From Marsupella aquatica (taxonomy: Eukaryota > Plantae > Marchantiophyta): 64,000 nucleotides of DNA. The first letter of the stretch is position 1, and each line of letters begins with the position of its first letter. The notes below the pieces were generated by a model. That model had not been told where the DNA came from. It searched no databases and worked only from the letters and a program-made list of their open reading frames with translations. Below are positions 14,139 to 64,000 of this stretch, one piece after another. Made by a program: the position numbers and the translations under genes. The stretch spans positions 16,290,148 to 16,354,147 of the forward strand of contig OZ316891.1 of the NCBI GenBank assembly GCA_973895155.1, written 5' to 3'.

Positions 14139-14195
14139 TCTCCTAGTAAATCCATCACCTCAGCTCCCTCCTTAGAGAGAGCGACTAGAGCATCC

Positions 14196-40562: not shown

Positions 40563-40603
40563 CCCTATTCCAAGGAAAGTTGGAACCCAATGGAGTACCA
40601 ACT

Positions 40604-43600
40604 TGTGGTGCGTCCCATGGCTCCCTAAACCCAAGAAACCCCCCAGCTCAAGCCGATTCCCGCAGGTTTCGTGCTTGGCGAGGCCGTTTCCGCAGCTTAG
40701 CGGCATGGGACGCTGCTAACCTTCTACTACTACTATTAACATTTTACACACATATACTGGACAGATCCTTCATCGGGTCATGAGATACGTAGCCGGCCTA
40801 ATATAGGCCTTCCCCTGTCTTCCCTTGTCTTCCCCTCCGTCTTGTTAGGTATGTTTGGATTCCGCCGCCGGAATGATCCCCAATAGGCTTGGTTAAGCCG
40901 CTAAGACCTCTCTCAGCTCGACACATCCAACTCTCACTCCCCTGCTTACTTTCCTTCCTTCTGTTGATGTGGGCACTCTTCACACAAGTTAATGCGACAC
41001 ACAAATAGCAAAATGACTCATTCTGACTGAGTCATACCATGCACTTGCCATACAAACAGTACATCTCATACACAAGTTCTGCGAACTAAGCCGTGAGGCC
41101 AACTCTATTCAGCTCTTAGGCATGAGGAAACATGAATATACACAAGGGTCACTGTATGACTAACCGAGAGCTTCTCGTACTACTTGATCCCAGCCCGGCT
41201 GGTGCAAACTAAAAACTTGCTAAAGAAGAGGCCCTGAGCTCCCCGCTGCCCAGGTACTTATCCTGGTAGTGGATCCGCTATTCTTTGCATCGTAAGCCTA
41301 ATCTACTTAACAGTAATCTACTTGCCCGAATCTACCTATGTACAGCAAGGCAGGAGCACAAGTGTTGCTCCTACCAGTGGGACCGCAATCCCACTAAGCT
41401 AAGTGTCAGGGCCGCTCCTGGTTCTGATCCTAATCCTAAACGTGGAGATCCGCGCCCGCCCTGCCCACTCACGCCTCCTCCCTCCACGTCCGCCCTCCCT
41501 AAAAGGAACGGCGCCCTTGCACCGTCACGACACCGGTGGTGGATCCTCAATGGACGCCCCCAACACTTCCTCCTCAGCCACTGCCGTTGGCCCGCCTACT
41601 GACAGATTACCTGCCCTTCACCGAGTCAACTCTCCATCGGCCTGACTGGGTCCACCTTCGGCTTCAGCCTCGACACCGGCCTCGGCAATACCCACGGCTT
41701 CGGCCTCAGCCACTCCCACGGCTTCGGCTTCAGCCACTCCCTCGGCTTCGGCCTCCCCTTCCCCTAGGGTAGTTGGATCCTTAGCCGTGACCCTGTCTGG
41801 GGTCGGTGCTGGGTCTACCTCCTTGATCACCACGGCCTGTGAAGTCGTATTACTCCTTGACCCTGAAGGTTTCCGCTTCTTCTTCGTTGGTGGCTCGGCA
41901 GCTGGTCCCTTCCCCTTCCCACTTACTTCCGGCACTGGTGCAGGTGGCGCGGCTTGTCCTTCGGCAATTACCACCCCTGGTAACTGGTTTGTCCCAACGG
42001 GAGATGGACCTGCTGCAGCTAAGCATTTAAATACTGCGGCTTGTTTCTTCAGCCGCTCTGTTTGGTTGTCGGCCCGCCGCTGTAGGTTCTCCATCTTCCT
42101 CGTGATTTCCTCCAACTCCTCTTGGGTTTCATCCAGGTCCTTACGTGCCCCCTCCAGCTCGTTTTTGGCCTCCTCCTGCTCCCTGTGGGCTTCCTCCAAT
42201 TCCTTCTTCAAGGTAGCCCTCTCCTCCTGGGTTGCTCTTAGCTCCTTGTCGAGCTCTGCAATGATGACAGACTCCATCTGGTTCATCTTGGCGTAAGTCT
42301 GTTCGAGCATCTCGTCCTTCTCCCTTAGGTCGGCCTTGAAGCTGGCCGTCAGGGACGCAAGCTCCTGCTGCAGCGCCATAATCCCTTGATAGGATTTCCC
42401 TAACTCGACCTCCTTCTGCTCAAGGGCTCCGCGGATTTTCTCGAGCTCCCCTTTCAACGCCCATTCCTTTCTTTGGGTCTCCGCCATGGCCCGGCTGTTG
42501 GCTGTTATGTGGGCCTCCTCTGTATTCTTCAGCTCTTGCTTCCACTTCTCCCTCTCTTTGATCGTGTCGGCCAACTCTTCCTGCGTCTGAGTCAGTTTAT
42601 CCTTGATATTCTGATTATCAGCCTGCGCGGTGTCCAACTGCCCCTGCATGATGTTCAGCTCATGTCGTTTAATCCGCAGTTCATCTTGGGCTTTCTTGGC
42701 CGCCCTTAGATCTTCAATCTCGGCTTCCATCCTCCTAAGCCGCCAAATGACCTCGTCCTTCTTGCTTCTCTCTAAAGCCACCGCTTCTTCTAATTGGTGC
42801 TTCTCCAACTGCTCCCTATGGAAAAAGGGTCCTACCTCCAACTCCTCTCCAAAGATGCCGTGCGCAAGTTCCCCACACATCTCACCATACTCCATGGCTC
42901 TATTCTTAGCGTAGGTGGAGTAAGTAGAAGTGATCGGCATCGCCCATCGTGGCCTCTGCTCCCAAGCCGTCCTGCGGATCTCTTCAATCGTGGCTAGAGG
43001 TTTGCTTCCTTTTTCGGCTAGCCGCCTGATGTCCTCCGGCCAATCTCCTCCTGGTAAATCCTTTTCCTTAGCCAAGGCGGCCTCTTCCTCCTGCTTGATT
43101 CGCTCCTGAAATTCCTGCACCATCTGTTTTATGCCGTCGAAGCTCGGGGGAGCAACATCTGGTGGGGGAGACTCAGGGCTACTCTGCTGGTTGGGGTCCC
43201 CTCGCACTACCCTTGGAAGTGTGGGGACAAACCGGCCACAGGTCCTTACTCCTGGAACGTGATGGTCCGACCCATAGCCGGAATTATCATGGCTGCAGTC
43301 CTCCACTGCCTCCTCTACCTCTTGGACGTCCGGCTTCTCCCTCTCCTCTTCCTCGGTAGGAGCTTCAGGCAATTCTGCCTCAGATTCGGAGCTTGAGGTT
43401 CCCACGTACATTCGAACACCTGGCTTGGATTCCGGCCTGATTCTCTTCTTGTCTCCAGCAAAGGGGTTTTCTCTTGTGAGCCGGTGTAGGCCTACCTCTG
43501 TAGTAGTGTCCTGCATTGTTGCCGTTGCCGTTGTTGTTGCCGATGCCGATTTCTTTTCTTTCTCCAGTAGTTTCAGCAGACTCTGCATGCCTGGTTGCTG

Positions 43601-45263
43601 CATCGGCAAGTCTTCCTTCCTGGGCCTAAACACCTGCTCGATCATAGGACTAACAGGTGGTTGAGGCTTCTCAGCCAACGGCCTCGGCGTTGGAGCTTCC
43701 TCCGGTGCCCTTACCTGCAGGGGAAGTACCGGGGCAAAAGTCTGACTTCTGGCATACCGGCACAACAGCGGCATGTGATAGCCAAGCCGCGACACGCTCC
43801 CCATGCCGATTACCTGCTACTCCTCCTTTAAGATCTTCTTCAATTGGTTGAGGAGGTACCCGTTGTAGTCCCGGCTTGGGTCTGGCCTTTCTGCCAGATA
43901 GACCTGTGCCTTGCCGATCTCTGCCCTCGGCAAGTTACAATGCATGGTCACCCGCAAGAAGTCGATCATCTCTCCTATGTGCGGGTTGGTGCAGGTGTTC
44001 CGGAAGAAGCCATTCTTCGTTGATGGCCCGGGGAACGACCGGAACTCCTTGTCAGGCAAGGTCTTCCTGGTATCAACTTTGGTCTTATTGCCTATCGGCA
44101 AGCCAAACACTTCGGCAATTACCTTGGGAGTAAGATAGAAATCCTTCCCATATATCCTCGTGCAATTGGTCTCGGGTTCCCATGACCCCACGAATTCTAA
44201 TAGGTCTGACTCCGGTACCTCCGGCTTCAGCCATGGTAATCTTACAAAGGCCTCCAAGCCGGATCCGGCCATGAAGCCTTGGTACTTCTTGGTCTGCATG
44301 GCCGTAAAGCATGCATCCTCCTCCCGTGCAAAATGTAGTTGCACCTCCACCGGTAGGGTTGCCGCCCAGCCCTTCCAGGTGTCATCCCTGGTTGGAATGG
44401 CCTTGATGGGATCGACCTCCTCCTCTTCGGCTTCTCCCTGCCTCCTGCTTTGCTGCTCGGCTGGCTTCTTTGGTGCCGCCGACCTTGTTCTTTTTGCCGG
44501 GGTGGCTTCATCGTTGACGGCTCCCTTCCTCTTCATCTCTGCTGCCGTGGAGGTTTCTCCTAGCACCGTTGCCTGGGTCCACCTTTTCGTGCTACCCTTT
44601 AATTCCCAGTGTATGTCGTTGCAGTTCTTGATGGCCTCTCGGATGCCGACGACGCTGTCTTTGCAAAACAGAAGATCGTCGAGTTGATTGGAAGTAGGCG
44701 TCCACAGGAACTCGTCCTTGATGAGTTCGCCTCCTAAGAAAGCCGTCTTCTGCAGCTCCCACAATCGAGCGAGCTCCTGCCGTTCTCGAGCTGCCCTTTT
44801 TGACTCCTCGTCCTCGTAAGTCTTGATATACTCAGTTGCCCGTTCGAACAGGCATCCCCAGAAATGTGCCGCTTGATTGACGTTGCTCATACCCTCCTTA
44901 GGTCGATCGTCGGTATCTATTCTCTCCCCGAGTGCTTGCCTAAGCAGCTGACAGTAGTTGGCCTCCCGTAGTCGTCTGCCTAGTTCGTGCTCGCAAATGA
45001 GCCACCATCTCCTGCAAGCGCTCCTTACCCCTCTCCTCTGCCGGTCCTTCTTCCCGTTGATCCTTCCTAGCCGCCGACGCTTAACGCGCCCTAACCCTAA
45101 TCGGGTTTTCACCCTTAGCCTTACCTCCGGCCTCGGCCCGGGTTCCATGGTTGCCCCTAATTGTTCATATTTTCCTTGTTTTGTCACTATACTAAGGTGT
45201 TCCTAGGGTGCCTTCCTGCTTTACCCACTTAACCGGCCGAGTGATTCCTGTCTAGGCATCACA
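40604..45263 (-). repeat. 3' LTR (4660 bp)
   Basis: Near-identical to 51472-56121 apart from one 10-bp indel and roughly 14 substitutions counted by eye; preceded by the PPT. Confidence 0.97.
41618..45187 (-). pseudogene. LTR-encoded ~1180-aa protein (Athila-ORF1/Transposase_32-like core plus long coiled coil), 3' LTR copy; one CAG>TAG at 43817
   Basis: ORFs 43817-45187 and 41618-43804 are in one frame. First ATG at 45148 in ACCATGG context. The other LTR has Q at this stop. Confidence 0.85.
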
Positions 45264-48200
45264 TAGCTCCCCACTTAATTGTGAAGCGTCCTCGCGAACA
45301 ACTTCATCTTCGTCCATATAGTATTTCTTGAGGCGGTCATAATGGATGCGAACTGGATATACCTCTCCCGTAATGTTGGCCAATTGTACGGAGCCATTGG
45401 GGAACATCATGGTTACTCTAAAGGGTCCTAACCAGCGAGTGTAAAGCTTTCCTGGAAACCTACTATACCTATTGTCATAAAGTAGCACAAGATCACCGGT
45501 ATGAATACTAACTACTTTTAACCTTTTATCATACTGCTGCTTCATGATATTCTGTCTATATTCTACTCTCTCGGCTGAAATCATTCTCGCTTCCTCTAAA
45601 GCTTCTAACCTATATTCTCGCTCCTTTAGGCTCTCCTCCGCTGAGGCTCTTTCCTCAATTGTAACTTGAAATGTCGGTATCTCAAGTTGCATGGGTACCA
45701 GGGCTTCTTGTCCAAAGGTTAAGAAGCCCGGTGTATGACCGGTAGTGGATTTATAGGCAAGATTGTAAGCAAAAACAGCAGCAAACAATTTATCATCCCA
45801 ATCGAGTTTGTTCTGAGCTACTGTCTTGTTCAATATCTTTCCTATGATTCCGTTTGCTCGTTCTGTCAACCCGTTTGCCTTTGGATGGTAGGGAGTAGTA
45901 GGCCTATGTTTAACTAAATACTGCTCATTTAAACGACTAATTATATCATTCAAAAAATGGGTTCCTCTATCACTAACTAATTCTAGGGGTGCTCCATACT
46001 TGGTGAAGATCTGCTCATACATGAATCTAGCCGTAGTAATTGCATCATCCTTCGTTGTTGGTCTGGCCTCTACCCATTTAGTTGCATAATCCGTAGCTAG
46101 GATTATGTACTTGTTCCGTCGAGGGTGGGTCAGTGGTTTCAGAGGTCCAATGTAATCAATACCCCACTTCTCGAATGGTGCCAGAGGTAGAATAGGGTGC
46201 AGTGGATGCCTGGTGGACGCCCTTGGTCCTCCCGCTCGTTGACAAGGATCGCATTGTTTGATAAACTGATAGACATCTTTGTGCAAGGTGGGCCACCAGT
46301 AACCGGCATTTAATATCTTCTTAGACGTGGTTACTGGGGCAAAATGTCCTCCGGCCTCCTCTCCATGCATGGCCCGTAGGACTCGTTTTACCTCTCTCTT
46401 TTCCAAACATCTTTGAATCGTGCCGTTGATTCCATGCTTGTGCAGTATGCCTTTAATGCACTGATACTGTCTGACCTTCCGCACAAAGACTGCGGCTTGC
46501 TCTCGGCTTAATCCTGGCTGTAATCTGGAAGTGCTGAGAAAATGTAAAATCTCAGGGTACCATGTACCAACTATTTCCACAATGAATAGCTCCTCGTCGG
46601 GGAATCGATCATCGATGCAATCCGTGGCAGGTTTACCTGTGATCCTTGAAAAGAAGTCGGCATTGGCATGTAACTTTCCCGGCTTGATCCTCAGCTCATA
46701 GTCAAACTCCTGTAATAGCAAAATCCATCTTGCTACTCTGCCTGTAAGGTCCGGCTTATTGACTAGGTACTTCAAACTTTCATGATCAGTATGAAAGATT
46801 ACCTTGTACCCTAGTAAATAATGTCTAAACTTTTTACAAGAATAAATGACTCCTAATGCTTCTCTTTCCATGGTAGAGTAGTTCCGTTCGGCATCGGCAA
46901 GCTGACGGCTTGCGAAGTATATGGGATGGTCCTTTCCTTTCTCATCCAACTGACTTAGTACTGAGCCAATACAGAAGCCCGAGACATCTACAAAAACATA
47001 AAAATCTTTGTTCCAGTCCGGTGCTATCATGACTGGGGCCTCTACTAACATCTGCTTCAATTCTACCACCGCTGTGACTCGTTCGGGTGTGGGTTCGAAG
47101 TCTGCTCCTGCCTTGAGCATATTGGTTAATGGTAAAGCCAGCTTGGCAAAATCCTTGATGAACCGGCGATAGTAACCAATGCATCCCAAGAAGGATCTTA
47201 CATCCTTTATGTTCGTAGGTTGCATGATATCTAGCCATACTGCTAGCTTACCTTTGTCAATCTCAATGCCCTTCCTTGATACCTTGTGACCTAGTAGCAC
47301 CCCCTCGGTTACTGCAAAAAAACATTTATCTGAGTGTAACTTGAGACCCACCTCTCTACATCTCATGAAGGTTTTCCTGAGGTATTTAGCATGTTTCGAT
47401 GCCTTCCCGAATACTGCAAAGTCATCAATGAAGATTTCCATGAACTTTCTCAAGTAATCATGAAAAATGTTCACCATTAATCGTTGGAACATAGCTGGTG
47501 CGTTGCAGAGTCCAAACGGCATACGATTGAAGACATAGATCCCCCATTCCGTGATGAAGGCCGTCTTGATTTGGTCTTCCTGCCGAATCCTGATTTGGTT
47601 ATAACCAGAGTATCCATCCATGAATGAATATAGTTCATGACTGGCTACCATGTCTAGTACCATATCAATAAACGGTAAAGGAAAATGGTCTTTTAATGTT
47701 GCTTCATTCAGCTTCCTGTAATCCTGACAAACCCGGATCTTGGGTTTACCATCGGGTCCAGCTTTCTTGGGAACTATCACAATTGGAGACACCCAGTCTG
47801 AATGCAGGACTGGAGTGATGAATCCAGCTTCCACTAGTTTGTCGATTTCTGTTTTGACCAACAGGGAATACTTCGGGTTCATCCTTCGAATTGGTTGTCG
47901 AAATGATTTGGCTCCTAACATGAGATCAATTCGATGTTCCCCTAGTGTTGGATCTACTCCCTTTAGATCTTGGTGACTCCATGCAAACACATCCTGAAAT
48001 TCAATCAATAAGTCACTGATCTCTTTCTCGAGCTCAGGTGCTAGGTTTCTCCCTAAGTTCAGTTCTCTTCCCTCTCCTAAGTCGAGCTTCCGATATTGCC
48101 GTGCTTGGATCATATTAATCTGCTTCTTCAAATTCGGGTCCAGTTCGGCTTCCAGTCTCTCTAATCTCATACCTCCATAAACTGGGATCTCGGCTGGACT

Positions 48201-48518
48201 AGCCGAGTCGGTCCCTTCCTTGGTGTCCATAGATTGTCCCCTTATCGGTCTATTCGGTTTTGAATTAGTGGTCGGCTCCCCTTCCTGCCTTGGCTCTAGA
48301 TCGTGTCTGTCCATCTCATCCACCTCTTGCTCCTGAGAGTTAGGCCGCTGTGCTCTCTCGGCTTCTAATAGGGCCTCAATTTGTTCTGCCCTCGTAATCG
48401 GCTTGTATGCCGATCCCTTGGTATTTAATTCCTTGCCGATGATCGATGGCGTTGTGGACCCCGTCGGCTCTGCCACAACGCCTGCAGAAAATCCACTGTC
48501 CCTGCTACTGCTCCCCAC
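45252..48518 (-). CDS. pol: pol: reverse transcriptase, RNase H, integrase (uninterrupted 1088-codon frame)
   Basis: WVSPIVIVPKK, DYRKLN, KDHFPLPFID, DGYSGYNQI, MPFGLCNAP, FIDD, YFASR...ERNYS, HHCC (H...GGH...CDPC), WGIDY, SDRGTHF, NGLTER, WLGPF. Confidence 0.95.
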   Translation of the reverse strand: MGSSSRDSGFSAGVVAEPTGSTTPSIIGKELNTKGSAYKPITRAEQIEALLEAERAQRPNSQEQEVDEMDRHDLEPRQEGEPTTNSKPNRPIRGQSMDTKEGTDSASPAEIPVYGGMRLERLEAELDPNLKKQINMIQARQYRKLDLGEGRELNLGRNLAPELEKEISDLLIEFQDVFAWSHQDLKGVDPTLGEHRIDLMLGAKSFRQPIRRMNPKYSLLVKTEIDKLVEAGFITPVLHSDWVSPIVIVPKKAGPDGKPKIRVCQDYRKLNEATLKDHFPLPFIDMVLDMVASHELYSFMDGYSGYNQIRIRQEDQIKTAFITEWGIYVFNRMPFGLCNAPAMFQRLMVNIFHDYLRKFMEIFIDDFAVFGKASKHAKYLRKTFMRCREVGLKLHSDKCFFAVTEGVLLGHKVSRKGIEIDKGKLAVWLDIMQPTNIKDVRSFLGCIGYYRRFIKDFAKLALPLTNMLKAGADFEPTPERVTAVVELKQMLVEAPVMIAPDWNKDFYVFVDVSGFCIGSVLSQLDEKGKDHPIYFASRQLADAERNYSTMEREALGVIYSCKKFRHYLLGYKVIFHTDHESLKYLVNKPDLTGRVARWILLLQEFDYELRIKPGKLHANADFFSRITGKPATDCIDDRFPDEELFIVEIVGTWYPEILHFLSTSRLQPGLSREQAAVFVRKVRQYQCIKGILHKHGINGTIQRCLEKREVKRVLRAMHGEEAGGHFAPVTTSKKILNAGYWWPTLHKDVYQFIKQCDPCQRAGGPRASTRHPLHPILPLAPFEKWGIDYIGPLKPLTHPRRNKYIILATDYATKWVEARPTTKDDAITTARFMYEQIFTKYGAPLELVSDRGTHFLNDIISRLNEQYLVKHRPTTPYHPKANGLTERANGIIGKILNKTVAQNKLDWDDKLFAAVFAYNLAYKSTTGHTPGFLTFGQEALVPMQLEIPTFQVTIEERASAEESLKEREYRLEALEEARMISAERVEYRQNIMKQQYDKRLKVVSIHTGDLVLLYDNRYSRFPGKLYTRWLGPFRVTMMFPNGSVQLANITGEVYPVRIHYDRLKKYYMDEDEVVREDASQLSGELCDA
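45264..45275 (-). other. Polypurine tract AGTGGGGAGCTA, inside the pol coding sequence
   Basis: Immediately precedes the TG of the 3' LTR. Confidence 0.8.
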
Positions 48519-49783
48519 TTAGCCGTTTCATCCAATTGGTCTACATCCTTTACTTCCTCCGGAATTGCAGCTAAAAAGGTGGATTCTATTGTAAAGCAGT
48601 CCTCGACCTCTTCGTCTTCTTCTTCCAAGTCACCTTCCATTGGTTCTTGCCATAATCCACTGGGGGGTACCTCTGGTCCAAAGACACCTTCTTCGGTTAG
48701 GTTAGTGAGGCATTCTAACCAACGTACTTCATCGGCTGACTCCAGTCCACTATCGTACCCATCTACTTCCCTTATGCTTTTCCTACGGTCATCCTTAGTG
48801 TCCCAGGATACCGTGATAGAGGGGGTCCCGAAAGTGAACTGCTTTTTACCCCAATCTTCTATTACCTCGGCTAGGTACAGCCATGGCCTACCAATCAATA
48901 GCCGGAATGACGTAGGATTTACCGGCTTCATTACTACATAGTTAATGCTAAAGAAGATACCTCCTATCTCTGTCTTGATGCCGGTTAACACTCCCGTCGG
49001 AATGACCTGATATCCATTGGCCATGTTCAACACTCTTCCAGTCATCTCCGGTGTTAGACCCCACCCTTTTGCTGTTGAATCAATCATAATACATACCCCT
49101 GATCCTCCATCGATGGGTACCCGTAGTAATAATTCTCCTTGAATCATTAATGGTAATGCTGGGGCTCCTTGATCTTCTTCTATCATTAGTACGTCGGATC
49201 TGGTTGCTACCTTGGGTAATCTCGGCTTGCCGAGAATAGCCTTCCTTAATTGCTTCCGGAAGTACGGGCTATTTTTCAATAGTTGACCTACTGTTGCCGA
49301 GACTCTAGATTCTAGTACATCTTTAGCCAGGTCATAGGGAACAATCGGCTTCTCTTCTGGTGGTGTTTCCGTCTTGGATTCGGCCAGTTTTGCCACGCTA
49401 GTCTCCACAGCTGTTGGGTCTTCCGAAGCAAACAATGCTTTTGCTCGTTTTACATCCTTGGCAATGGCTTCGGTATTCTCCAGGGTTTCTAATTCTCTTA
49501 GTTGTTCCTTAACACTAGCCGTAACAGAGGGGTAGAACAACTTAGGATGATCTCGATTGAAGTCGCTATCTTGTGAAGGATTGGTTTCACTGGTGGGCTC
49601 ATGGCTTACCTGTATTGCCGGAGCCCTCCCTTCTCCTTCTGTTGATGTTGACGAAGAGTCGATCCTTTCCTCCGTAACCTTCCCTTTATTTTTGGCCAGC
49701 CCATCCCACCTTTCCTTCCTTCTGGTAGATCGAGTAGAGACCCGGTAGCAATCATGATCTAAATCCTCCTCTGAGAAGGTTGA
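48425..49783 (-). CDS. Aspartic protease region
   Basis: VPIDGGSGVCIM active site, LLIGRPWL; frame open from ~49783, including YRVSTRS. Confidence 0.85.
   Translation of the reverse strand, partial: STFSEEDLDHDCYRVSTRSTRRKERWDGLAKNKGKVTEERIDSSSTSTEGEGRAPAIQVSHEPTSETNPSQDSDFNRDHPKLFYPSVTASVKEQLRELETLENTEAIAKDVKRAKALFASEDPTAVETSVAKLAESKTETPPEEKPIVPYDLAKDVLESRVSATVGQLLKNSPYFRKQLRKAILGKPRLPKVATRSDVLMIEEDQGAPALPLMIQGELLLRVPIDGGSGVCIMIDSTAKGWGLTPEMTGRVLNMANGYQVIPTGVLTGIKTEIGGIFFSINYVVMKPVNPTSFRLLIGRPWLYLAEVIEDWGKKQFTFGTPSITVSWDTKDDRRKSIREVDGYDSGLESADEVRWLECLTNLTEEGVFGPEVPPSGLWQEPMEGDLEEEDEEVEDCFTIESTFLAAIPEEVKDVDQLDETAKWGAVAGTVDFLQALWQSRRGPQRHRSSARN
48435..48494 (-). promoter_or_regulatory. Putative -1 programmed ribosomal frameshift signal between protease and RT
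   Basis: G GAT TTT (48494-48488) in the PR frame, 5-nt spacer, perfect 10-bp stem GGCGTTGTGG/CCACAACGCC; pol is in the -1 frame. Confidence 0.75.
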
Positions 49784-51402
49784 TCATCAGATGGTACGAA
49801 CTCTTCCTCGGCATCCTCTTGCCATCCTAGTTCGATGTGGTTGATTTGAACTCCTCCGGGGGTAGTACCTGGCAGTAAGATCTTGATCGGCAAAAGCTTA
49901 TGATTTGCGGCCAGGCCTGCCAACCAAGTAGGACATTGCCCTAGCATATGACCTTCCTATCGGCATCCCATACATAGCTGAGCTGGTTGTCCATCACCCT
50001 CTTTGCGTGCATTCGGGCATTCTCTAGCAAAATGGCCAGGTTGACCACAATTATAGCACGCCGCAAATCTTTGCACATTCGGCCTAGGAGGTACTGACGG
50101 GTTCTGAATAATCCGAGGATACATCTCTCCTGGATTGTTCCTTAACCCTGACCACAGAGATGCAGGTTTGTTGGATAGGTCTCGTGCTCCAGTCTCACTG
50201 ATGCCGAAAACACTATCAGCGGCATCTCCTAAAAAGTACTCTACTTCTCCCTGACATGGTCTGATCTCGGCCACATGCCGAACATGATTAGTATTAAGCT
50301 TAGGACACGCATCTTTATGGTGTCCGGTTTTATAACATAAGGCACACCATACAGAGCTATCCTCCTGTACTACCTTCTTCTTTGGTTTTACCTCTGCAAT
50401 GATAGCCTTAAGTTGCTCGGTAAGGGCTACGATGTTATCTGGTGGCTTAGCCTCCATCTTGACTTTCGTCTTCCCTCTCCTTCTGCCCTTCCTTTTCCTA
50501 GTTTTTTCTTCTTCAGAACTAGAAGATGACTCACTCTTGCTACTCCCACTATTCGAGCTTGACTTATCACTTCTAGACTTCTTGGAATGTTTCTTCTTCT
50601 TATCTTTTTTCTTATGGGGTGATCCCTCCTCTGATGAGGAACTCTCAGACTTAAGCTGTTTCTTCCGGCTTGTGATATCTGCATTAATGTATAATTGAAT
50701 ATCCTTAATTGCTTCGGCTAAAGTCTCCGGGTTCTCCTTCCTAATTGCAAAACTCATCTTCTGTGGCAAAGCATTCACCAACCATTGAAGTTGCATACCT
50801 TCAGATGCATTGGTCTTTGTACGTCTTACCAGTTTCTGAAAGCGTTGCAAGAACTTCCTGAAGGATTTGTTCTCCTTGAACCGAAGTTGTCCCAACTTCA
50901 GCACTGCTAGTTCTGAAGTTCCAATGGGTCGAAACTCCTTAACAAAGAGTGTTTTGAAGATATCCCAGATGGCTTGATCTTCCACATCTAATGCTCTGTA
51001 CCAAGGCCTAGCCTCACCCTTGAACAGGCCGGGAAGAATCTGCATCTTGATGGCCGATTCTCCATTTGCTGCAGCGGTTCCCTCGAAATCATCCAACCAT
51101 TCGTCCGGATCCTCATCTCCTCTCCCATGAAATGCCTTGTAATGTATGCGCGACCGCTGGCTCAATCTGGTCCCTGGCCTCTCGTCTGGCCGTGCCTCTG
51201 GTTCCCCCATGTCGGTTGGAGACTCACTTCTCCTTACCGACTCTTCTTCTGGTATGTCTTCTTCGACGCCACTTCCAGTTTCGGAGCTACCAGCTCTTTC
51301 TGCCCCTCTCAGTCGCTGTGTATCATGCCACCCGGCGAGCTGCTGCAGTCGAGCTCTCTCCCGTTGAATCACTCTTTCTTCCCTCGGCGTAAGGTCAGTC
51401 AT
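49759..51402 (-). pseudogene. gag: gag with three CCHC knuckles; in-frame TAG at 49957 inside the third knuckle
   Basis: FHGRGDEDPDEWLDDFE capsid motif; CALCYKTGHHKDAC, CYNCGQPGHFAREC, CMGCR*EGHMLGQC. Confidence 0.9.
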
Positions 51403-51448
51403 TACCTACGCTTCCGTTCTAACTTCATATCTCACGGCTTAAGAAATG

Positions 51449-51467
51449 CCCCCTCCATCTAGCGCCA
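51449..51467 (-). other. Primer-binding site TGGCGCTAGATGGAGGGGG
   Basis: TGG start 4 nt after the 5' LTR end; cognate tRNA not identified. Confidence 0.75.
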
Positions 51468-51471
51468 AAAA

Positions 51472-54400
51472 TGTGGTGCGTCCCATGGCTCCCTAAACCC
51501 AAGAAACCCCCCAGCTCAAGCCGATTCCCGCAGGTTTCGTGCTTGGCGAGGCCGTTTCCGCAGCTTAGCGGCATGGGACGCTGCTAACCTTCTACTACTA
51601 CTATTAACATTTTACACACATATACTGGACAGATCCTTCATCGGGTCATGAGATACGTAGCCGGCCTAATATAGGCCTTCCCCTGTCTTCCCCTCCGTCT
51701 TGTTAGGTATGTTTGGATTCCGCCGCCGGAATGATCCCCAATAGGCTTGGTTAAGCCGCTAAGACCTCTCTCAACTCGACACATCCAACTCTCACTCCCC
51801 TGCTTACTTTCCTTCCTTCTGTTGATGTGGGCACTCTTCACACAAGTTAATGCGACACACAAATAGCAAAATGACTCATTCTGACTGAGTCATACCATGC
51901 ACTTGCCATACAAACAGTACATCTCATACACAAGTTCTGCGAACTAAGCCGTGAGGCCAACTCTATTCAGCTCTTAGGCATGAGGAAACATGAATATACA
52001 CAAGGGTCACTGTATGACTAACCGAGAGCTTCTCGTACTACTTGATCCCAGCCCGGCTGGTGCAAACTAAAAACTTGCTAAAGAAGAGGCCCTGAGCTCC
52101 CCGCTGCCCAGGTACTTATCCTGGTAGTGGATCCGCCATTCTTTGCATCGTAAGCCTAATCTACTTAACAGTAATCTACTTGCCCGAATCTACCTATGTA
52201 CAGCAAGGCAGGAGCACAAGTGTTGCTCCTACCAGTGGGACCGCAATCCCACTAAGCTAAGTGTCAGGGCCGCTCCTGGTTCTGATCCTAATCCTAAACG
52301 TGGAGATCCGCGCCCGCCCTGCCCACTCACGCCTCCTCCCTCCACGTCCGCCCTCCCTAAAAGGAACGGCGCCCTTGCACCATCACGACACCGGTGGTGG
52401 ATCCTCAATGGACGCCCCCAACACTTCCTCCTCAGCCACTGCCGTTGGCCCGCCTACTGACAGATTACCTGCCCTTCACCGAGCCAACTCTCCATCGGCC
52501 TGACTGGGTCCACCTTCGGCTTCAGCCTCGACACCGGCCTCGGCAATACCCACGGCTTCGGCCTCAGCCACTCCCACGGCTTCGGCTTCAGCCACTCCCT
52601 CGGCTTCGGCCTCCCCTTCCCCTAGGGTAGTTGGATCCTTAGCCGTGACCCTGTCTGGGGTCGGTGCTGGGTCTACCTCCTTGATCACCACGGCCTGTGA
52701 AGTCGTATTACTCCTTGACCCTGAAGGTTTCCGCTTCTTCTTCGTTGGTGGCTCGGCAGCTGGTCCCTTCCCCTTCCCACTTACTTCCGGCACTGGTGCA
52801 GGTGGCGCGGCTTGTCCTTCGGCAATTACCACCCCTGGTAACTGGTTTGTCCCAACGGGAGATGGACCTGCTGCAGCTAAGCATTTAAATACTGCGGCTT
52901 GTTTCTTCAGCCGCTCTGTTTGGTTGTCGGCCCGCCGCTGTAGGTTCTCCATCTTCCTCGTGATTTCCTCCAACTCCTCTTGGGTTTCATCCAGGTCCTT
53001 ACGTGCCCCCTACAGCTCGTTTTTGGCCTCCTCCTGCTCCCTGTGGGCTTCCTCCAATTCCTTCTTCAAGGTAGCCCTCTCCTCCTGGGTTGCTCTTAGC
53101 TCCTTGTCGAGCTCTGCAATGATGACAGACTCCATCTGGTTCATCTTGGCGTAAGTCTATTCGAGCATCTCGTCCTTCTCCCTTAGGTCGGCCTTGAAGC
53201 TGGCCGTCAGGGACGCAAGCTCCTGCTGCAGCGCCATAATCCCTTGATAGGATTTCCCTAACTCGACCTCCTTCTGCTCAAGGGCTCCGCGGATTTTCTC
53301 GAGCTCCCCTTTCAACGCCCATTCCTTTCTTTGGGTCTCCGCCATGGCCCGGCTGTTGGCTGTTATGTGGGCCTCCTCTGTATTCTTCAGCTCTTGCTTC
53401 CACTTCTCCCTCTCTTTGATCGTGTCGGCCAACTCTTCCTGCGTCTGAGTCAGTTTATCCTTGATATTCTGATTATCAGCCTGCGCGGTGTCCAACTGCC
53501 CCTGCATGATGTTCAGCTCATGTCGTTTAATCCGCAGTTCATCTTGGGCTTTCTTGGCCGCCCTTAGATCTTCAATCTCGGCTTCCATCCTCCTAAGCCG
53601 CCAAATGACCTCGTCCTTCTTGCTTCTCTCTAAAGCCACCGCTTCTTCTAATTGGTGCTTCTCCAACTGCTCCCTATGGAAAAAGGGTCCTACCTCCAAC
53701 TCCTCTCCAAAGATGCCGTGCGCAAGTTCCCCACACATCTCACCATACTCCATGGCTCTATTCTTAGCGTAGGTGGAGTAAGTAGAAGTGATCGGCATCG
53801 CCCATCGTGGCCTCTGCTCCCAAGCCGTCCTGCGGATCTCTTCAATCGTGGCTAGAGGTTTGCTTCCTTTTTCGGCTAGCCGCCTGATGTCCTCCGGCCA
53901 ATCTCCTCCTGGTAAATCCTTTTCCTTAGCCAAGGCGGCCTCTTCCTCCTGCTTGATTCGCTCCTGAAATTCCTGCACCATCTGTTTTATGCCGTCGAAG
54001 CTCGGGGGAGCAACATCTGGTGGGGGAGACTCAGGGCTACTCTGCTGGTTGGGGTCCCCTCGCACTACCCTTGGAAGTGTGGGGACAAACCGGCCACAGG
54101 TCCTTACTCCTGGAACGTGATGGTCCGACCCATAGCCGGAATTATCATGGCTGCAGTCCTCCACTGCCTCCTCTACCTCTTGGACGTCCGGCTTCTCCCT
54201 CTCCTCTTCCTCGGTAGGAGCTTCAGGCAATTCTGCCTCAGATTCGGAGCTTGAGGTTCCCACGTACATTCGAACACCTGGCTTGGATTCCGGCCTGATT
54301 CTCTTCTTGTCTCCAGCAAAGGGGTTTTCTCTTGTGAGCCGGTGTAGGCCTACCTCTGTAGTAGTGTCCTGCATTGTTGCCGTTGCCGTTGTTGTTGCCG

Positions 54401-56121
54401 ATGCCGATTTCTTTTCTTTCTCCAGTAGTTTCAGCAGACTCTGCATGCCTGGTTGCTGCATCGGCAAGTCTTCCTTCCTGGGCCTAAACACCTGCTCGAT
54501 CGTAGGACTAACAGGTGGTTGAGGCTTCTCAGCCAACGGCCTCGGCGTTGGAGCTTCCTCCGGTGCCCTTACCTGCAGGGGAAGTACCGGGGCAAAAGTC
54601 TGACTTCTGGCATACCGGCACAACAGCGGCATGTGATAGCCAAGCCGCGACACGCTCCCCATGCCGATTACCTGCTGCTCCTCCTTTAAGATCTTCTTCA
54701 ATTGGTTGAGGAGGTACCCGTTGTAGTCCCGGCTTGGGTCTGGCCTTTCTGCCAGATAGACCTGTGCCTTGCCGATCTCTGCCCTCGGCAAGTTACAATG
54801 CATGGTCACCCGCAAGAAGTCGATCATCTCTCCTATGTGCGGGTTGGTGCAGGTGTTCCGGAAGAAGCCATTCTTCGTTGATGGCCCGGGGAACGACCGG
54901 AACTCCTTGTCAGGCAAGGTCTTCCTGGTATCAACTTTGGTCTTATTGCCTATCGGCAAGCCAAACACTTCGGCAATTACCTTGGGAGTAAGATAGAAAT
55001 CCTTCCCATATATCCTCGTGCAATTGGTCTCGGGTTCCCATGACCCCACGAATTCTAATAGGTCTGACTCCGGTACCTCCGGCTTCAGCCATGGTAATCT
55101 TACAAAGGCCTCCAAGCCGGATCCGGCCATGAAGCCTTGGTACTTCTTGGTCTGCATGGCCGTAAAGCATGCATCCTCCTCCCGTGCAAAATGTAGTTGC
55201 ACCTCCACCGGTAGGGTTGCCGCCCAGCCCTTCCAGGTGTCATCCCTGGTTGGAATGGCCTTGATGGGATCGACCTCCTCCTCTTCGGCTTCTCCCTGCC
55301 TCCTGCTCTGCTGCTCGGCTGGCTTCTTTGGTGCCGCCGACCTCGTTCTTTTTGCCGGGGTGGCTTCATCGTTGACGGCTCCCTTCCTCTTCATCTCTGC
55401 TGCCGTGGAGGTTTCTCCTAGCACCGTTGCCTGGGTCCACCTTTCCGTGCTACCCTTTAATTCCCAGTGTATGTCGTTGCAGTTCTTGATGGCCTCTCGG
55501 ATGCCGACGACGCTGTCTTTGCAAAACAGAAGATCGTCGAGTTGATTGGAAGTAGGCGTCCACAGGAACTCGTCCTTGATGAGTTCGCCTCCTAAGAAAG
55601 CCGTCTTCTGCAGCTCCCACAATCGAGCGAGCTCCTGCCGTTCTCGAGCTGCCCTTTCTGACTCCTCGTCCTCGTAAGTCTTGATGTACTCAGTTGCCCG
55701 TTCGAACAGGCATCCCCAGAAATGTGCCGCTTGATTGACGTTGCTCATACCCTCCTTAGGTCGATCGTCGGTATCTATTCTCTCCCCGAGTGCTTGCCTA
55801 AGCAGCTGACAGTAGTTGGCCTCCCGTAGTCGTCTGCCTAGTTCGTGCTCGCAAATGAGCCACCATCTCCTGCAAGCGCTCCTTACCCCTCTCCTCTGCC
55901 GGTCCTTCTTCCCGTTGATCCTTCCTAGCCGCCGACGCTTAACGCGCCCTAACCCTAATCGGGTTTTCACCCTTAGCCTTACCTCCGGCCTCGGCCCGGG
56001 TTCCATGGTTGCCCCTAATTGTTTATATTTTCCTTGTTTTGTCACTATACTAAGGTGTTCCTAGGGTGCCTTCCTGCTTTACCCACTTAACCGGTCGAGT
56101 GATTCCTGTCTAGGCATCACA
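51472..56121 (-). repeat. 5' LTR (4650 bp)
   Basis: Direct repeat of 40604-45263; followed by the PBS. Confidence 0.97.
52476..56045 (-). pseudogene. LTR-encoded ~1180-aa protein, 5' LTR copy; stops at 53157 and ~53010
   Basis: Same 3570-nt frame as 41618-45187. First ATG at 56006. Both stops are sense codons in the other LTR. Confidence 0.85.
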
Positions 56122-57300
56122 CAACTGGTTTTGCATTCTCCATCCCATACTTGGCAAGTACCTTCTCCTTGAAATACTACCTCTAAGATAACCATAATTG
56201 CCTTTGCTCATTGTCACGGTGAATCTCTATCCCTAGAATCTTCTTGGCCTGACCCAAGTCCTTCATTGAAAACTCCTTACTCAACATTGCTTTCAGATGA
56301 GCAACATCAACCATACTCTCAGCCAGGATTAGCATGTCATCCATGTACAGTACTAAAGTTTGAGTAATTTTCCACCTCATTATGTAAATACAACAATCAT
56401 GTTTACTCCGCGTGAACCCCTAAGACAACATGCAGAAATCAAAATGCTTATTCCACTGTCTAGGACTCTACTTCAAACCGTATAATGAGCGCAAGAGCTG
56501 ACACACCAAGTGTTTGGTCTTCTCGTCAATAATCCTAGAGGCTAAGTCATATAAATCACCACATCAAGCAATCCATGCAAGAAAGCAGTAATTACATCCA
56601 TCTGACCTAACTCAAGATCATAGAGTGTCACAATTGCAAGTAAAACACAGATAATAGTGAGCTTGACAACTGGTGTACCCTTTGGCCACAAGGCATGCCT
56701 GGCTTGTAAGTGTCATTTGGCTTCTTCTTGTACAACCATCTACATGGAACCAGTGTCTTCCCGCGAGGCATGTCCACTAAGCGCCAAGTTGAATTCTTCT
56801 TCAAAGATTTTATCTCCTTCAACGTTGTCTGCATCCACTTATCCTTCTCTAGAGAGGCCATAGCTTCTTCATAGCTAGAGGGGTCTCCATCCTCAGTGAG
56901 CAATATAATACCGAGATCATTGTTGTGCTCAACCAAGTGAACCCGAGGATCTGCAAAACCAAATCTATCAGGGGGTTGGCCAAGATTGGCCCTTGTAGAG
57001 CACCTTAATTGAGTAACTGCACCTCTACCAAAGGGTCTAGTAGCTTCCTCAACACCATCAAGCTCCATCGTAGTGGGTTACTCCACCTGCTCCTCTTGAT
57101 TATCCTGGGATCTTGACAACCATTCTTTGTCAAAAATAATATTTCTACTCACAATTGCCTTGCAATCAATAGGATCCCATAACTCATAGCCCTTCTGCCT
57201 TGGACTAAAGTCTAGAATAATACATTTCTTACACTTGGGATCCAACTTAGACCTGTGTGTCTGCTCAATGTGAACATAGGCAACACACCCAAAAACAAGG
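56122..57300 (-). mobile_element. Ty1/Copia remnant (integrase C-terminus and RT), target of the Gypsy insertion
   Basis: FGCVAYVH, KLDPK, YMDDML, FSMKDLGQAKKILGIEI; the frame continues across the TSD as ENAKPVGTPLGSNF (to ~40576). Confidence 0.85.
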
Positions 57301-60295: not shown

Positions 60296-63200
60296 ACTGC
60301 CATTGGTCCGTCCTCTGATAGATTACCTGCCTCTGACCGAGTTAACTTTTCATCGGCCTGACTGGGTCCACCCTCGGATTCGGCCTCGGCTCGGAAATCA
60401 TTCTCGGCTACGGCCTCAGCCTCGGCTACGGCCTCCCCGGCCTGCTCAAGAGGTGGATCTGGGATACCGGCCTCATTACTGAGTAGTTTGGCTTGGGCCG
60501 CGCCATCCCCACCTTTGGTGATAGCGGAATCTATTGCTGTGTTCATGCCGGAGGTTGGTACCGGTTTGAGTACGGCTTGAGGGGTCGAATAACCTCCGGA
60601 CCCCGAAGGTTTCCGCTTCTTCTTCTTCACTATCTCCATAGCCGGTTCCTTCCCCTTGCCGCCAACGTCCGGCACCGGGCCGTGTGTCACGGCTGGTCCT
60701 TCGGCAATTACCACCCCAGGTAACTGGTTTGCCCCAACGGGAGATGGACCTGATGCAGCTAAGCATTTAAATACTGTGGCTTGTTTCTTCAGCCGCTCTG
60801 TTTGGTTGTCGGCCCGCCGCTGTAGGTTCTTCATCTTCCTCGTGATTTCCTCCAACTCCTCCTGGGTCTCATCCAGGTCCTTACGTGCCTCCTCCAGCTT
60901 GTTTTTGGCTTCCTCCAATTCCCTGTGGGCTTCCTCCAATTCCTTCTTGGTGGTAGCCCTCTCCTCCTGGGTTGCTCTTAGCTCCTTGTCGAGCTTTGCT
61001 ACGACCTCCGACTCCATGTTATTCATCTTGGCATAAGTCTGGTCGAGCTGGGCGTCCTTCTCCCTTAGGTCGGCCTTGAAGCTGGCCGTCAGGGATGCAA
61101 GCTCCTGCTGTAGCGCAACAATCCCTTGATAGGATTTCCCTAACTCGGCCTCCTTCTACTCAAGGGCTCTGCGGATGACCTCGAGCTCTTCCTTCAGCGC
61201 CCTCTCCCTTCTCTGAGCCTCCGCCATGACCCGTTTGTTGACTGCTATATGGGCCTCCTCTGCGTCTCTCAGCTCCTTCTTCCATTTCTCCCTGTCCTTG
61301 ATTGCGTCGGCCAATTGTCCCTGTGTCTGAGTCAGTTTATCCTTGATAATCTGATTATCAGCCTACGCGGTGTCCAACTGCCCCTGCATGATGTTCAGCT
61401 CATGCCGCTTAATCCGCAGTTCATCTTGGGCTTTCTTGGCCGCCCTTAGATCTTCAATCTCGGCTTCCATCCTCCTAAGCCGCCGGATGACCTCGTCCTT
61501 CTTGCTTCTCTCTAAAGCCACCGCTTCTTCTAATTGGTGCTTCTCCAACTGTTCCATATGGAAAAAGGGTCCTACCTCCAACTCCTCCCCAAAGATGTCG
61601 AGCGCAAGTTCCCCACATATCTCACCATACTCCATGGCTCTATTCTTAGCGTAGGTGGAGTAAGTAGAAGTGATCGGCATCGCCCATCGCGGCCTCTGCT
61701 CCCAAGCCGTCTTGCGGATCTCTTCAATCGTGGCTAGAGGTTTGCTTCCTTTTTCGGCTGGCCGCCTGATGTCCTCCGGCCAATCTCCTCCTGGAAAATC
61801 CTTTTCCCTAGCCAGGGCTGCCTTCTCTGCTTCCCTAAGTCGCTCCTGAAATTCCTGTGCCGTCTGCTTTATGCCGTCAAAGCTCGGGGGAGCGACATCA
61901 GGTGGGGGAGACTCGGGGCTGCTCTGCTGGCTTGGGTCTCCTCAAACTACTCTTGGGAGCGTGGGGATGAACCGGCCACAAGTCCTTACTCCTGGAACAT
62001 GATGATCCGACCCATAGCCGGAGTCATCATTGCTGTAGTCCTCTACCGCCTCCTCCTCAGCTTGGACTACCGGCTTCTCCCGCTGTTCTCCTGGTTCTGT
62101 TGTTAACACGGCTTCACCTCTCACCGGTCTTGGTTCCTCCTCCGGCTTCCGTGTTGATCTCTTGTTCTCCTTGTCGTGGCCGGGAGCTACGGCCTGCTTC
62201 TCCTCGGCTTCGGGACTTAAGGCTCCGACATACATCCGGACTCCCGGCTCGTGTTCCGGCCTCCTTCTCTCCTTGACCCCAGTAAAGGGGTTTTCCCTTG
62301 TAAGCCGGCTTAGGCCCACCTCTGGAGCAGTGTCCTGCATTGGTGTCGTTGTCATTGTCGTTGCCATTGCCGTTCTCTTTTCCTTCTCCAGTAATTTCAG
62401 CAGATTCTGCATGCCTGGTTGCTGCATTGGCAAGTCCTCCGTCCTTGGCCTAAACACCTGCTCAATTGTAGGACTGTCGGGCGGGTTGGGTTTCTCCGTT
62501 GTCGGCGCCTGCTCCGGGTCCTCCTCCGGTGCTCTTGCCGATAGGGGAAGTACTGGGGCAAAGATTTGACTTCTGGCATACCGGCACAACAGCGGCATGT
62601 GATAGCCAAGCCGGGACACGCTTCCCACGCCGATCACCTGCTGTTCCTCCTTCAAGATCTTCTTTAGTTGGTTGAGGAGGTACCCATTGTAATCCCGGCT
62701 TGGGTCTGGCCTTTCTGCCAGGTAGACCTGAGCCTTGCCGATCTCTGCCCTCGGTAAGTTACAATGCATGGTCACCCGCAAGAAGTCGATCATCTCTCCT
62801 ATGTGCGGGTTGGTGCAGGTGTTCCGGAAGAAGCCATTCTTCGTTGATGGCCCGGGGAACGACCGGAACTCCTTGTCAGGCAAGGTCTTCCTGGTATCAA
62901 CTTTGGTCTTATTGCTTATCGGCAAGCCAAACACTTCGGCAATCACCTTGGGAGTAAGATAGAAATCCTTCCCATATATCCTCGTGGAATTGGTCTCGGG
63001 TTCCCATGACCCCACGAATTCTAATAGGTCTGAATCCAGCACCTCCGGCTTCAGCCATGGTAATCTTACAAAGGCCTCTAAGCCGGATCCGGCCATGAAG
63101 CCTTGGTACTTCTTGGTCTGCATGGCCGTAAAGCATGCATCCTCCTCCCGTGCAAAATGTAGTTGCACCTCCTCTGGTAGGGTTGCCGCCCAGCCTTTCC

Positions 63201-64000
63201 AGGTGTCATCCCTGGTTGGAATGGCATTGATGGGATCGTCCTCCTCCTCTTCGGCTTCTCTCTGCCTCCTGCTCTGCTGCTTGGCTGGCTTCTTGGGTGC
63301 CGCCGACCTCGTTCTTTTTGCCGGGGTGGCTTCATCGTTGACGGCTCCCTTACTCTTCATTTCGGCTCCCGTGGATGTCTCTCCTAGCACGGTTGCCTTT
63401 GTCCACCCCTCCGTGCTACCCTTCAACTACTAGTGTATGTTGTTGCAGCGTTTGATGGCTTCTCGGATGCGGACGACTCTATCTTCGCAAAACAGAAGAT
63501 CGTCGAGCTGATTGGAAGTAGGAGTCCACAAGAACTCGGCCTTGATGAGTTTGCCTCCTAAGAAAGCCGTCTTTTGCAGCTCCCACAATCGAGCGAGCTC
63601 CTGCCATTCTCGAGCTACCCTTTCTGATTCTTTGTCCTCGTAAGTCTTGATGTACTCAGTTGCCCGTTCGAACAGGCATCCCCAGAAATGTGCCGCTTGA
63701 TTGACGTTGCTCATACCCTCCTTGAGTCGATCGTTGGTATCTGTTCCCACCCCGAGTGCTTGTCTAAGCAGTTGACAGCATTTGGCCTCCCGTAGTCGTC
63801 TGCCCAGTTCGTTCTTGCAAATGAGCCACTATTCCTCGCGAGCGGTCCTTACCCCTCTCCTCTTCCGGTCCTTCCTTCCGTTGATCCTTCCTAGCCGCTG
63901 ACGCTTAGCGCGCCCTAACCCTAATCTTGTTTTCACCCCCAGTGTCCTTACCTCCGGCCTCGGCCCGGGTTCCATAGTCGCCCCTAATTGTTTATATTTT
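60296..64000 (-). mobile_element. Diverged (subfamily) copy of the ORF-bearing Gypsy LTR, 3' part deleted, continuing beyond the window
   Basis: ORF pieces 60271-63750 are homologous to the LTR ORF, with an in-frame insertion and a divergent C-terminus; several stops. Confidence 0.92.

Follow-up and report, generated by a model that had tools for sequence, protein, structure and literature searches.

How does a plant retrotransposon come to hold a gene of more than a thousand codons inside each of its long terminal repeats (LTRs), and what could the gene do there? LTRs are usually viewed as regulatory DNA, and pipelines presume them to be short and non-coding (1-2 kb by default in ATHILAfinder), whereas in the element studied here, part of a 64,000-nt stretch of DNA analysed as a whole (the window), a gene under selection, which persists in solo LTRs, fills three quarters of the LTR. 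LTR-resident genes are a retroviral feature, as with sag of MMTV and the nef overlap of HIV. The window gene resembles these in being an accessory open reading frame (ORF) doubled by reverse transcription, but its protein is unrelated and several times longer, and the element is a non-infectious plant element without env. In the literature searched we found neither a description of such a layout in plants nor a catalogue entry for it.

The element lies on the minus strand, as do its genes, its LTRs and the further LTR copies described below, and measures 15.5 kb. Self-BLAST and global alignment delimit a 3' LTR of 4660 nt (40604..45263) and a 5' LTR of 4650 nt (51472..56121), which are 99.46% identical over 4660 nt by self-BLAST and differ in the global alignment by 15 substitutions (13 transitions) and one 10-nt indel. 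The LTR termini are TG..CA, and identical 5-bp target-site duplications (TSDs) flank the element (40599..40603 and 56122..56126). A primer-binding site (PBS) seen in the sequence (51450..51467), which may be of the tRNA-Asn type, begins 4 nt past the 5' LTR, and a conserved motif followed by a polypurine tract (together the PPT module, 45264..45299) adjoins the 3' LTR and overlaps the last pol codons. The alignment and these signals uphold the LTR limits that had been proposed from the letters alone (the sequence-only reading). With the order gag-pro-RT-RH-INT, they identify the element as a recently inserted Ty3/Gypsy retrotransposon.

In the internal region, a Pfam scan located RT, RNase H and integrase in pol (45252..48518), whose stop codon lies 12 nt within the 3' LTR; the D-E-D-D residues of RNase H were recognized by eye, and the scan found neither an extra RNase H nor a chromodomain in pol. 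The protease-containing frame (48425..49783) was assigned by eye from a D-G-G-S motif, without a Pfam match, and gag (49957..51405) contains Retrotrans_gag and a zinc knuckle. A stop codon in the second knuckle (49957-49959) is found in this copy only, and the frame is broken between gag and pro near 49780; contigs differ from the window copy at 49959 in all four runs and near 49782 in two. Programmed frameshifting was considered at gag/pro and rejected, since the site lacks a slippery sequence and the contigs show an indel difference there. Between pro and pol, a slippery heptamer (48488-48494), a 5-nt spacer and a 10-bp perfect stem (48448..48494 altogether) form a likely -1 frameshift signal, whose fold is the most stable of the 2055 45-nt windows in the internal region (z -3.1, 500 shuffles), and pol would be produced by -1 frameshifting behind the protease. 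The sequence-only reading did not mention this signal.

Both LTRs contain the same sense frame, of 3585 nt from stop to stop; read from its first ATG, it runs from LTR nt 116 to nt 3646 (3531 nt, 1176 aa) and takes up 76% of the LTR. The layout reported earlier (about 75% of the LTR) stands, while the reported length of 3570 nt is slightly off. The copy in the 3' LTR (41618..45148, 1176 codons) has one stop (43817-43819) and that in the 5' LTR (52476..56006, 1176 codons) has two (53157-53159 and 53010-53012), at the positions given before. Among the ten codons that changed between the LTRs, three became nonsense. The longest open frame has 967 codons, compared with a mean of 128 and a maximum of 295 in 2000 base shuffles of the LTR. 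Because the two LTRs are identical at insertion and each stop is confined to one of them, the ORF was intact when the element inserted. The broader claim of an element intact throughout is shown for the ORF alone; the gag stop and the gag/pro break are undatable.

Two further LTR copies of the family in the window also hold the ORF. One (60296..64000, the 60-kb copy) is 84-90% identical, has six stops and extends past the window end; the other (5872..7352, the 6-kb copy) is truncated to the first 1481 nt and has the same start base and a non-PPT flank, as in a 5' or solo LTR. The dN/dS of the ORF (kappa 3) is 0.43 against the 60-kb copy (1158 codons) and 0.32 against the 6-kb copy (450 codons), falling to 0.22 and 0.15, respectively, in the core domain (aa 255-490), whereas shifted frames used as a control gave 1.17 and 1.52. 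Net indels relative to the 60-kb copy preserve the frame. These data show that the LTR ORF evolves under purifying selection. They also support the earlier proposal of a lineage whose accessory gene sits in the LTR and is doubled at each replication, and no member of the family in the window combines a short LTR with an internal ORF.

Comparison with the REXdb lineages indicates that the element is likely Athila-related. It shares with Athila (OTA clade) the absence of a chromodomain and of an additional RNase H (aRH), the native RNase H catalytic residues, a 5-bp TSD and a sense extra ORF behind pol, and its size falls inside the Athila range (7.3-22.8 kb); the PBS type of Athila is tRNA-Asp or tRNA-Asn. 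It differs from Athila in that the extra ORF, found there between pol and the PPT and placed internally by reviews (PMC7264820), lies beyond the PPT in both LTRs, in its LTR of 4.65 kb, where searches for ATHILA default to 1-2 kb, and in the likely -1 frameshift linking pro and pol. Phygy/Selgy elements have a 4-bp TSD, no extra ORF and 4.4-10 kb, unlike this one. Members of Tat (Ogre, Retand, TatI-III) possess the extra RNase H that the window element lacks, and their native one is degraded; Tat Z1/Z2, which occur in Marchantia, are without aRH (PMC10508981). Ogre, Retand and Tekay elements (Retrosat2 ORF0, Grande gene23) also combine 3-5 kb LTRs with an accessory ORF, but theirs precedes gag or sits between pol and the 3' LTR. 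In an integrase tree built without labelled references or a Tat/chromovirus outgroup, the element groups with proteins of Riccia and Marchantia, away from the angiosperm matches. Its nearest named relatives are liverwort proteins, and the element itself likely comes from a liverwort.

The extra ORF of Athila-type elements "has no assigned function" (10.64898/2026.03.20.713144). Word-index searches with the ORF gave no match; an exhaustive search gave 22, from which P0125, P0135 and P0139 were removed as repeat-driven. No relative was found in the viral contigs searched, and the profile used did not match P0035, a Transposase_32-bearing protein. The domain groups are homologous by hhalign (95.9% and 97.1%), and the ORF of one relative, L009, matches Transposase_32 (E 2.5e-4), although at 21.4 bits it stays under the gathering cut-off of 45 for Transposase_32/ATHILA ORF1, for which the window domain gives no match. 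Through L009, the window domain is related to the "env-like" Athila ORF (ATHILA ORF1 PF03078 / Transposase_32 PF20167; Atlas leads 0.87-0.88). No transmembrane helix is predicted in the window protein (top 19-residue hydropathy 0.98), in which basic NLS-like patches are predicted. Judged by these homologies, the ORF is a relocated Athila-type gene and no orphan.

A globular core domain (aa 265-490; 54537..55214) and a long coiled coil (about aa 790-1050; 52857..53639) are predicted, the latter from sub-threshold coiled-coil Pfam matches; its region has 1% proline and 39% charged residues. The AlphaFold model of the core (pLDDT 85, pTM 0.81) replaced one from a poorer alignment (pLDDT 51), which was not used. 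Among 48,161 PDB chains it best matched VANC21 bound to DNA (9LNK; rmsd 4.0, 198 residues aligned, 9% identity) with a Z of 8.5, modestly above the 7-8 that the tool usually returns as its best for unmatched models, the next-best match being at Z 2.4; against 9LNJ the Z was 8.7. Foldseek found no PDB match at E<=0.001 and no significant match among viral models (best E 0.017, an unnamed protein), a PDB sequence search gave no significant match, and the core domain matched no Pfam family, including DUF1985 and PMD. We conclude that the core has a predicted VANC21-like fold, which by itself shows no function. The sequence-only reading had missed the place of the protein among the known extra-ORF domains of plants (Transposase_32/ATHILA-like, VANC21 fold).

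Among the closest known proteins are VANC21 of VANDAL/MuDR (DUF1985) and the plant mobile domain proteins (MAIN/MAIL1; retrotransposon PMD-A). With VANC21 the window protein shares the predicted core fold over about 200 residues, a coiled coil and a short motif over-represented in the transposon, but the two have little sequence identity, and VANC21 comes from a MuDR transposon while the window gene lies in a retrotransposon LTR, likely of a bryophyte. PMC5735166 reports that VANC binds short motifs, located in non-coding tandem arrays, and removes methylation; PMC13547354 describes VANC as dicot-specific and, like 10.1101/2024.09.27.615353, PMD-C as similar to it.

The candidate target motif in the element is GCCGA. 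It was chosen on the LTR ORF and then compared with synonymous shuffles, which it exceeded in pol (15 occurrences vs 8.1), pro (9 vs 2.2) and gag (8 vs 2.6), so that it is over-represented in all four element ORFs, whereas it is at or below expectation in four of four neighbouring LINE ORFs. It occurs mostly in coding DNA, unlike the VANC motifs: the 1-kb non-coding LTR tail has a single occurrence, and no k-mer there exceeds shuffles. Other lineages have motifs of their own (CCGGA in L002-L006, z 6-14; CCCGA-type in L028; AGTCGA in L032; AATTGG in L009). No motif is enriched in L001, L008, L012 or L021, three of which (L001, L012, L021) nonetheless carry the ORF; weaker enrichment (z 4.9-5.8) occurs in L015, L016 and L019, where no such ORF was seen. 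Mutation bias could be an alternative source of such motifs. Tandem arrays are present in the LTR regions of L005 and L006.

The relatives, all short-read contigs of which none spans two LTRs, suggest how the gene entered the LTR. Of 79 loci, 11 gave a match to the PPT module, which lies directly behind pol in nine and behind the ORF in two (L001, L009); in L012 it was assigned behind the ORF by eye. Behind the module, L002, L004, L005 and L007 have a homologous sense ORF, whereas in L001, L009 and L012 the extra ORF is internal, between pol and the PPT, and L028 and L032 carry this domain as an in-frame fusion at the C-terminus of integrase. These internal and fused ORFs of distant relatives suggest an origin for the gene and do not refute the layout. 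L013 has the module behind pol, yet no sense ORF of at least 150 aa in the 1.4 kb downstream. The bases after the module form an inverted repeat of those before the PBS in L002 (9/11), L006 (10/11) and the window (8/11), and weakly so in L001 (4/11); L006 provides a 1394-nt head and an 869-nt tail without overlap. The window LTR showed no relic PPT module behind its ORF. In relatives whose integrase is about 55% identical, the gene lies either in the LTR or internally, ahead of an LTR of about 1 kb, so that a shift of the PPT boundary likely carried it into the LTR. Support for a single origin of the in-LTR layout is only 53/25. The in-LTR layout also occurs in a distant clade, a point absent from the sequence-only reading.

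The explanation we favour, with modest confidence, is that of an Athila-related element whose gene entered the LTR by a plus-strand priming shift and whose VANC21-fold protein acts as a sequence-specific anti-silencer of its own family; part of the evidence is that relatives differ in whether the PPT module precedes or follows the ORF. The ancestor may have had the order pol, purine run, ORF, PPT and short LTR, as in L001. Priming would have moved to just behind pol, and the ORF with the old LTR would have become the new U3; the gene would therefore be copied into both LTRs every cycle and persist in solo LTRs. Central PPTs are known in a plant element (PMC7197481). Genomic RNA would start near the LTR end, where a TATA-like box (40800..40805), about 200 nt short of the end, is a candidate promoter, and expression of the ORF would rely on a sub-genomic RNA or on a promoter within the first ~100 nt of the LTR. 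The protein may recognize a short motif with a CpG, for which GCCGA is the candidate and which recurs along the element, and counter DNA-methylation or Polycomb silencing; from the modelled fold, we consider it likely that the element uses the protein to escape host silencing. The fold and a candidate motif per lineage make this role directly testable, and if it is true, such factors are carried by retrotransposons as well as MuDR DNA transposons and the lineages offer a natural panel of protein-motif pairs. More tentatively, and rather doubtfully as a whole, a bryophyte Athila-related clade may hold a VANC-like gene in the LTR as a self-contained anti-silencer cassette in each insertion and solo LTR, each of its lineages co-evolving with its own coding-sequence motif, and the Athila "env-like" ORF may be the retrotransposon counterpart, possibly an older relative, of VANC. 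New here are the VANC21 structural match, the in-LTR and internal relatives, the GCCGA enrichment and the likely pro/pol frameshift.

It is a real possibility, if short of probable, that the gene is functional but its LTR position a tolerated accident of PPT choice, double copies and solo-LTR retention bringing no advantage. Relatives do keep both layouts, with the gene internal or fused in some, and it decays after insertion, as the three nonsense changes and the six stops of the 60-kb copy attest. However, the layout has been retained in two or more lineages whose integrases are only about 55% identical, despite a cost of 3.5 kb per LTR, and TATA-like boxes lie upstream of the ORF within the LTR.

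Rather unlikely, in our judgement, is that the same architecture serves another job, the protein tethering the element to chromatin to direct integration, or assisting as an oligomer in the particle or in nuclear import. Chromoviruses carry a targeting domain at the integrase C-terminus, where L028 and L032 have the domain fused. The predicted coiled coil would also suit this role, as would the pentamer modelled for the Athila domain in PMC13547354. In most relatives, however, the domain forms an independent ORF preceded by a spacer of its own; the sole fold match is a sequence-specific anti-silencing protein, and lineage-specific motifs suit a DNA binder acting in trans.

We regard it as improbable that the ORF lies in R/U5 instead of U3, with transcription from the first ~100 nt, the ORF as first cistron and a strong-stop DNA of ~4.5 kb. 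TATAAA does occur at LTR nt 95 in the 5' LTR and at nt 58 and 95 in the 6-kb copy, and rice Retrosat2 is described in PMC3485330 with a U3 of ~240 nt and an R of 2 kb. Yet TATA-like boxes lie close to the LTR end in the window, L006 (~150 nt ahead) and L001 (~100 nt ahead), gag would become the second cistron, and the relatives with an internal ORF place the origin of the gene on the 3' side.

An assembly artefact, a segmental duplication or a chance open frame is very hard to credit, given the exact TSD, PBS and PPT, LTRs that differ at 16 places, further copies with the same start base, a dN/dS far below 1, the homologues and the shuffle control. Summed contig depth is higher over the LTR than over the internal region, which we do not take as copy number. 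In runs X1 and X2, thousands of contigs cover the LTR and the ORF. The LTR start base recurs at 7352 in the window and in one contig of run X6, and four contigs contain exact junctions of other positions with 51472 or 45263.

The minus-strand Ty3/Gypsy element at 40604-56121 carries a long gene inside each of its LTRs, and we are nearly certain that this architecture is real. When the 3' LTR (40604-45263) and the 5' LTR (51472-56121) were aligned, all four marks from which the sequence-only reading had taken the LTR limits were found: TG..CA termini, an exact 5-bp TSD on either side, a PBS starting 4 nt beyond the 5' LTR, and a purine run (PPT) directly next to the 3' LTR. By self-BLAST the LTRs share 99.46% identity across 4660 nt, with 15 substitutions and a single 10-nt indel between them (K2P distance 0.0032); at a substitution rate near 1e-8, the insertion age is of the order of 0.1-0.2 My. 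Both LTRs contain a sense ORF of 1176 codons, spanning LTR nt 116-3646. The two copies disagree at ten codons; three of these are stops, each in a single LTR, so the earlier observation that stops are not shared holds. The longest open frame in the LTR is 967 codons, against a maximum of 295 in 2000 shuffles. The 6.2-kb internal region encodes gag, pro, RT-RH-INT and nothing more, and the pol stop codon lies 12 nt within the 3' LTR.

Two further minus-strand LTR copies bear the ORF, one at 60296-64000, extending past the window end, and one at 5872-7352, with the same start base and a non-PPT flank. The dN/dS of the ORF (kappa 3) is 0.43 against the former and 0.32 against the latter (0.24-0.49 when kappa was varied from 1 to 6), falling to 0.22 and 0.15 in the globular core (aa 255-490), while shifted frames gave 1.17 and 1.52. 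Part of the window occurs in 11 of 14 listed public sequencing runs, none recorded as RNA, five of them containing at least half of its words; the run with the largest share may itself derive from the source of the window. Tens of thousands of contigs from two runs, X1 and X2, map to the window. Contigs of four runs were compared with the element; at two of the window copy's stops, the one in gag (49959) and one of those in the ORF (53159), all four runs differ from it. Four contig joints in X1 and X2 fall exactly on 51472 or 45263, and one contig from run X6 tracks the LTR up to 45263 and then continues into unrelated sequence. In runs X1-X6 the family is present at 43-74% of words under four organism codes, a spread that may stem from labelling, from material collected together or from interspecies transfer.

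The closest named pol relatives are from liverworts (Calypogeia, 62-63%; Riccia, 48-55%; Marchantia, 44-47%), and named angiosperm matches are mostly near 41-42%. No chromodomain or extra RNase H was found in the element's pol, and the TSD is 5 bp long; by the criteria tabulated for REXdb (PMC6317226), this combination agrees with Athila, as opposed to Phygy, Selgy or Tat. Two integrase trees, a quick one of 58 rows and a careful one of 25, group the element with Riccia proteins and metagenome loci, separate from angiosperm proteins; because they include no labelled reference sequences, we infer that the element is Athila-related.

The layout is very probably common to a distant clade as well. 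Next to the LTR in the window lies a conserved module made up of a short motif, a purine run and TG; its pattern matched 11 of the 79 metagenome loci fetched by integrase similarity, in nine directly after pol. Among the latter, a translated homologous ORF lies downstream in L002, L004, L005 and L007 and, by DNA likeness, an ORF start in L006, a count that leaves out L046 and the too-short L003 and L014; no ORF of at least 150 aa was seen downstream in L013. No second module follows the ORF within the 219-1107 nt tail of L004, L005 and L007. In L002 and L006, the bases next to the module form an inverted repeat of those next to the PBS, implying that the LTR begins behind pol, as in the window. 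The module instead follows the ORF in L001 and L009, and by eye in L012; L001, a circularised contig, has a ~1-kb LTR, and another purine run lies behind its pol. In L028 (6933-9740, +) and L032 (1648-4710, +), with LTRs of about 0.55-0.6 kb, the domain is fused to integrase as an in-frame extension of ~1000 residues, in L028 within a single 2992-aa ORF. Since the ORF is internal in the more deeply branching relatives and also in Athila of angiosperms (PMC7264820), the internal position is likely ancestral. A switch of the PPT to an upstream site would then have put the ORF into the LTR, and central PPTs are documented for EVADE (PMC7197481); alternatively, recombination may have inserted the gene into U3. 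The gene may have moved into the LTR once or twice, a single origin having support of only 53/25 in the integrase tree. A literature search, extending to partial texts, turned up no gene residing in the LTR of a plant retrotransposon, a result that subscription papers could change.

In the LTR-encoded protein, a basic N-terminus leads into the core, which an acidic linker rich in proline joins to a predicted coiled coil, and the tail is of low complexity; the protein has two NLS-like patches but lacks a transmembrane helix. An exhaustive search with the core gave 22 matches; of ten that were looked up, three were NCBI proteins, all from Calypogeia. A profile of core homologues matched seven of the 79 loci, and hhalign of the window group against two loci groups gave 95.9% and 97.1%. 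The L009 ORF has a 160-residue match to Transposase_32, scoring under the cut-off. Structure prediction had been proposed by the sequence-only reading; the AlphaFold2 core model (27 sequences; pLDDT 85, pTM 0.81) had only five matches at Z 2 or more among 48,161 chains, led by DNA-bound VANC21, the VANDAL anti-silencing protein (rmsd 4.0, 198 residues aligned, 9% identity), at Z 8.5 with a tool for which a best Z of 7-8 is commonplace. Another VANC21 entry gave Z 8.7. We trust the match because the runner-up reached only Z 2.4 and the whole domain is covered. VANC is reported to resemble PMD/MAIN (10.1101/2024.09.27.615353; PMC13547354), and the literature consulted, partly excerpts, held no link between an Athila-type ORF and the VANC fold. 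Our best guess, with the chances about even, is that the protein acts as an anti-silencing factor.

Against synonymous shuffles, 6-mers with GCCGA rank top in the LTR ORF; three further ORFs, kept out of that ranking, also show GCCGA enrichment (z 3.1, 5.1 and 3.7), and the four LINE ORFs do not. The element has 6.1 GCCGA per kb, against 0.6 in 32 kb of flank, but only 1 in the non-coding LTR tail, a distribution unlike that of VANC targets (PMC5735166). Nineteen ORFs of relatives show distinct motifs by lineage, strong in L002-L006, L009, L028 and L032 and weak or marginal in L015-L019; none stands out in L001, L008, L012 and L021. These patterns are no more than suggestive of GCCGA as a candidate target site, and mutation bias is an alternative source of such excess. 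A very strong, element-wide CCGGA excess was seen in L002, L003, L004, L005 and L006 (100 observed versus 32 expected in L002 pol), and ATCCGG occurs 35 times in the L006 LTR region, whereas no 6-mer exceeded 13 in shuffles.

TATA-like boxes lie ~200 nt ahead of the LTR end and inside its first 100 nt, with comparable boxes in L001, L004 and L006; ATHILA ORF2 is expressed via a spliced sub-genomic RNA. At the pro/pol junction (48448-48494, -), a slippery heptamer that is used in viruses lies 5 nt ahead of a 10-bp stem without mismatches, which ranks first in stability among 2055 internal-region windows and is equalled in 2 of 500 shuffles; no indel at the junction is among the contig differences listed. 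A programmed -1 frameshift from protease to RT is thus likely, as judged from these signals, whereas in relatives there is just one in-frame stop instead, which follows gag in L002 and L006 and lies immediately ahead of RT in L001.

Elsewhere in the window, a host gene fragment at 25433-25996 (+) looks, by eye, like an exon of a plant O-fucosyltransferase family gene. Several open frames of one apparent gene (1518-5337, +) include a ParB-like D-G-N-H-R motif near 2200 and a C-terminal stretch weakly matching N6_N4_Mtase (E 0.0017), and may represent a DNA N4/N6-methyltransferase-like gene. A preprint (10.64898/2026.05.21.726589) reportedly deals with retrotransposon-borne adenine methyltransferases. 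L1-type LINE copies or fragments (DUF4283, endonuclease, RT, zf-RVT) lie at 10410-16411 (-), 30844-31428 (-), 34769-39984 (+) and about 58560-60280 (-), one piece adjoining the LTR copy at about 60290, and a degenerate pyrimidine-rich tandem repeat array occupies 17534-18905.
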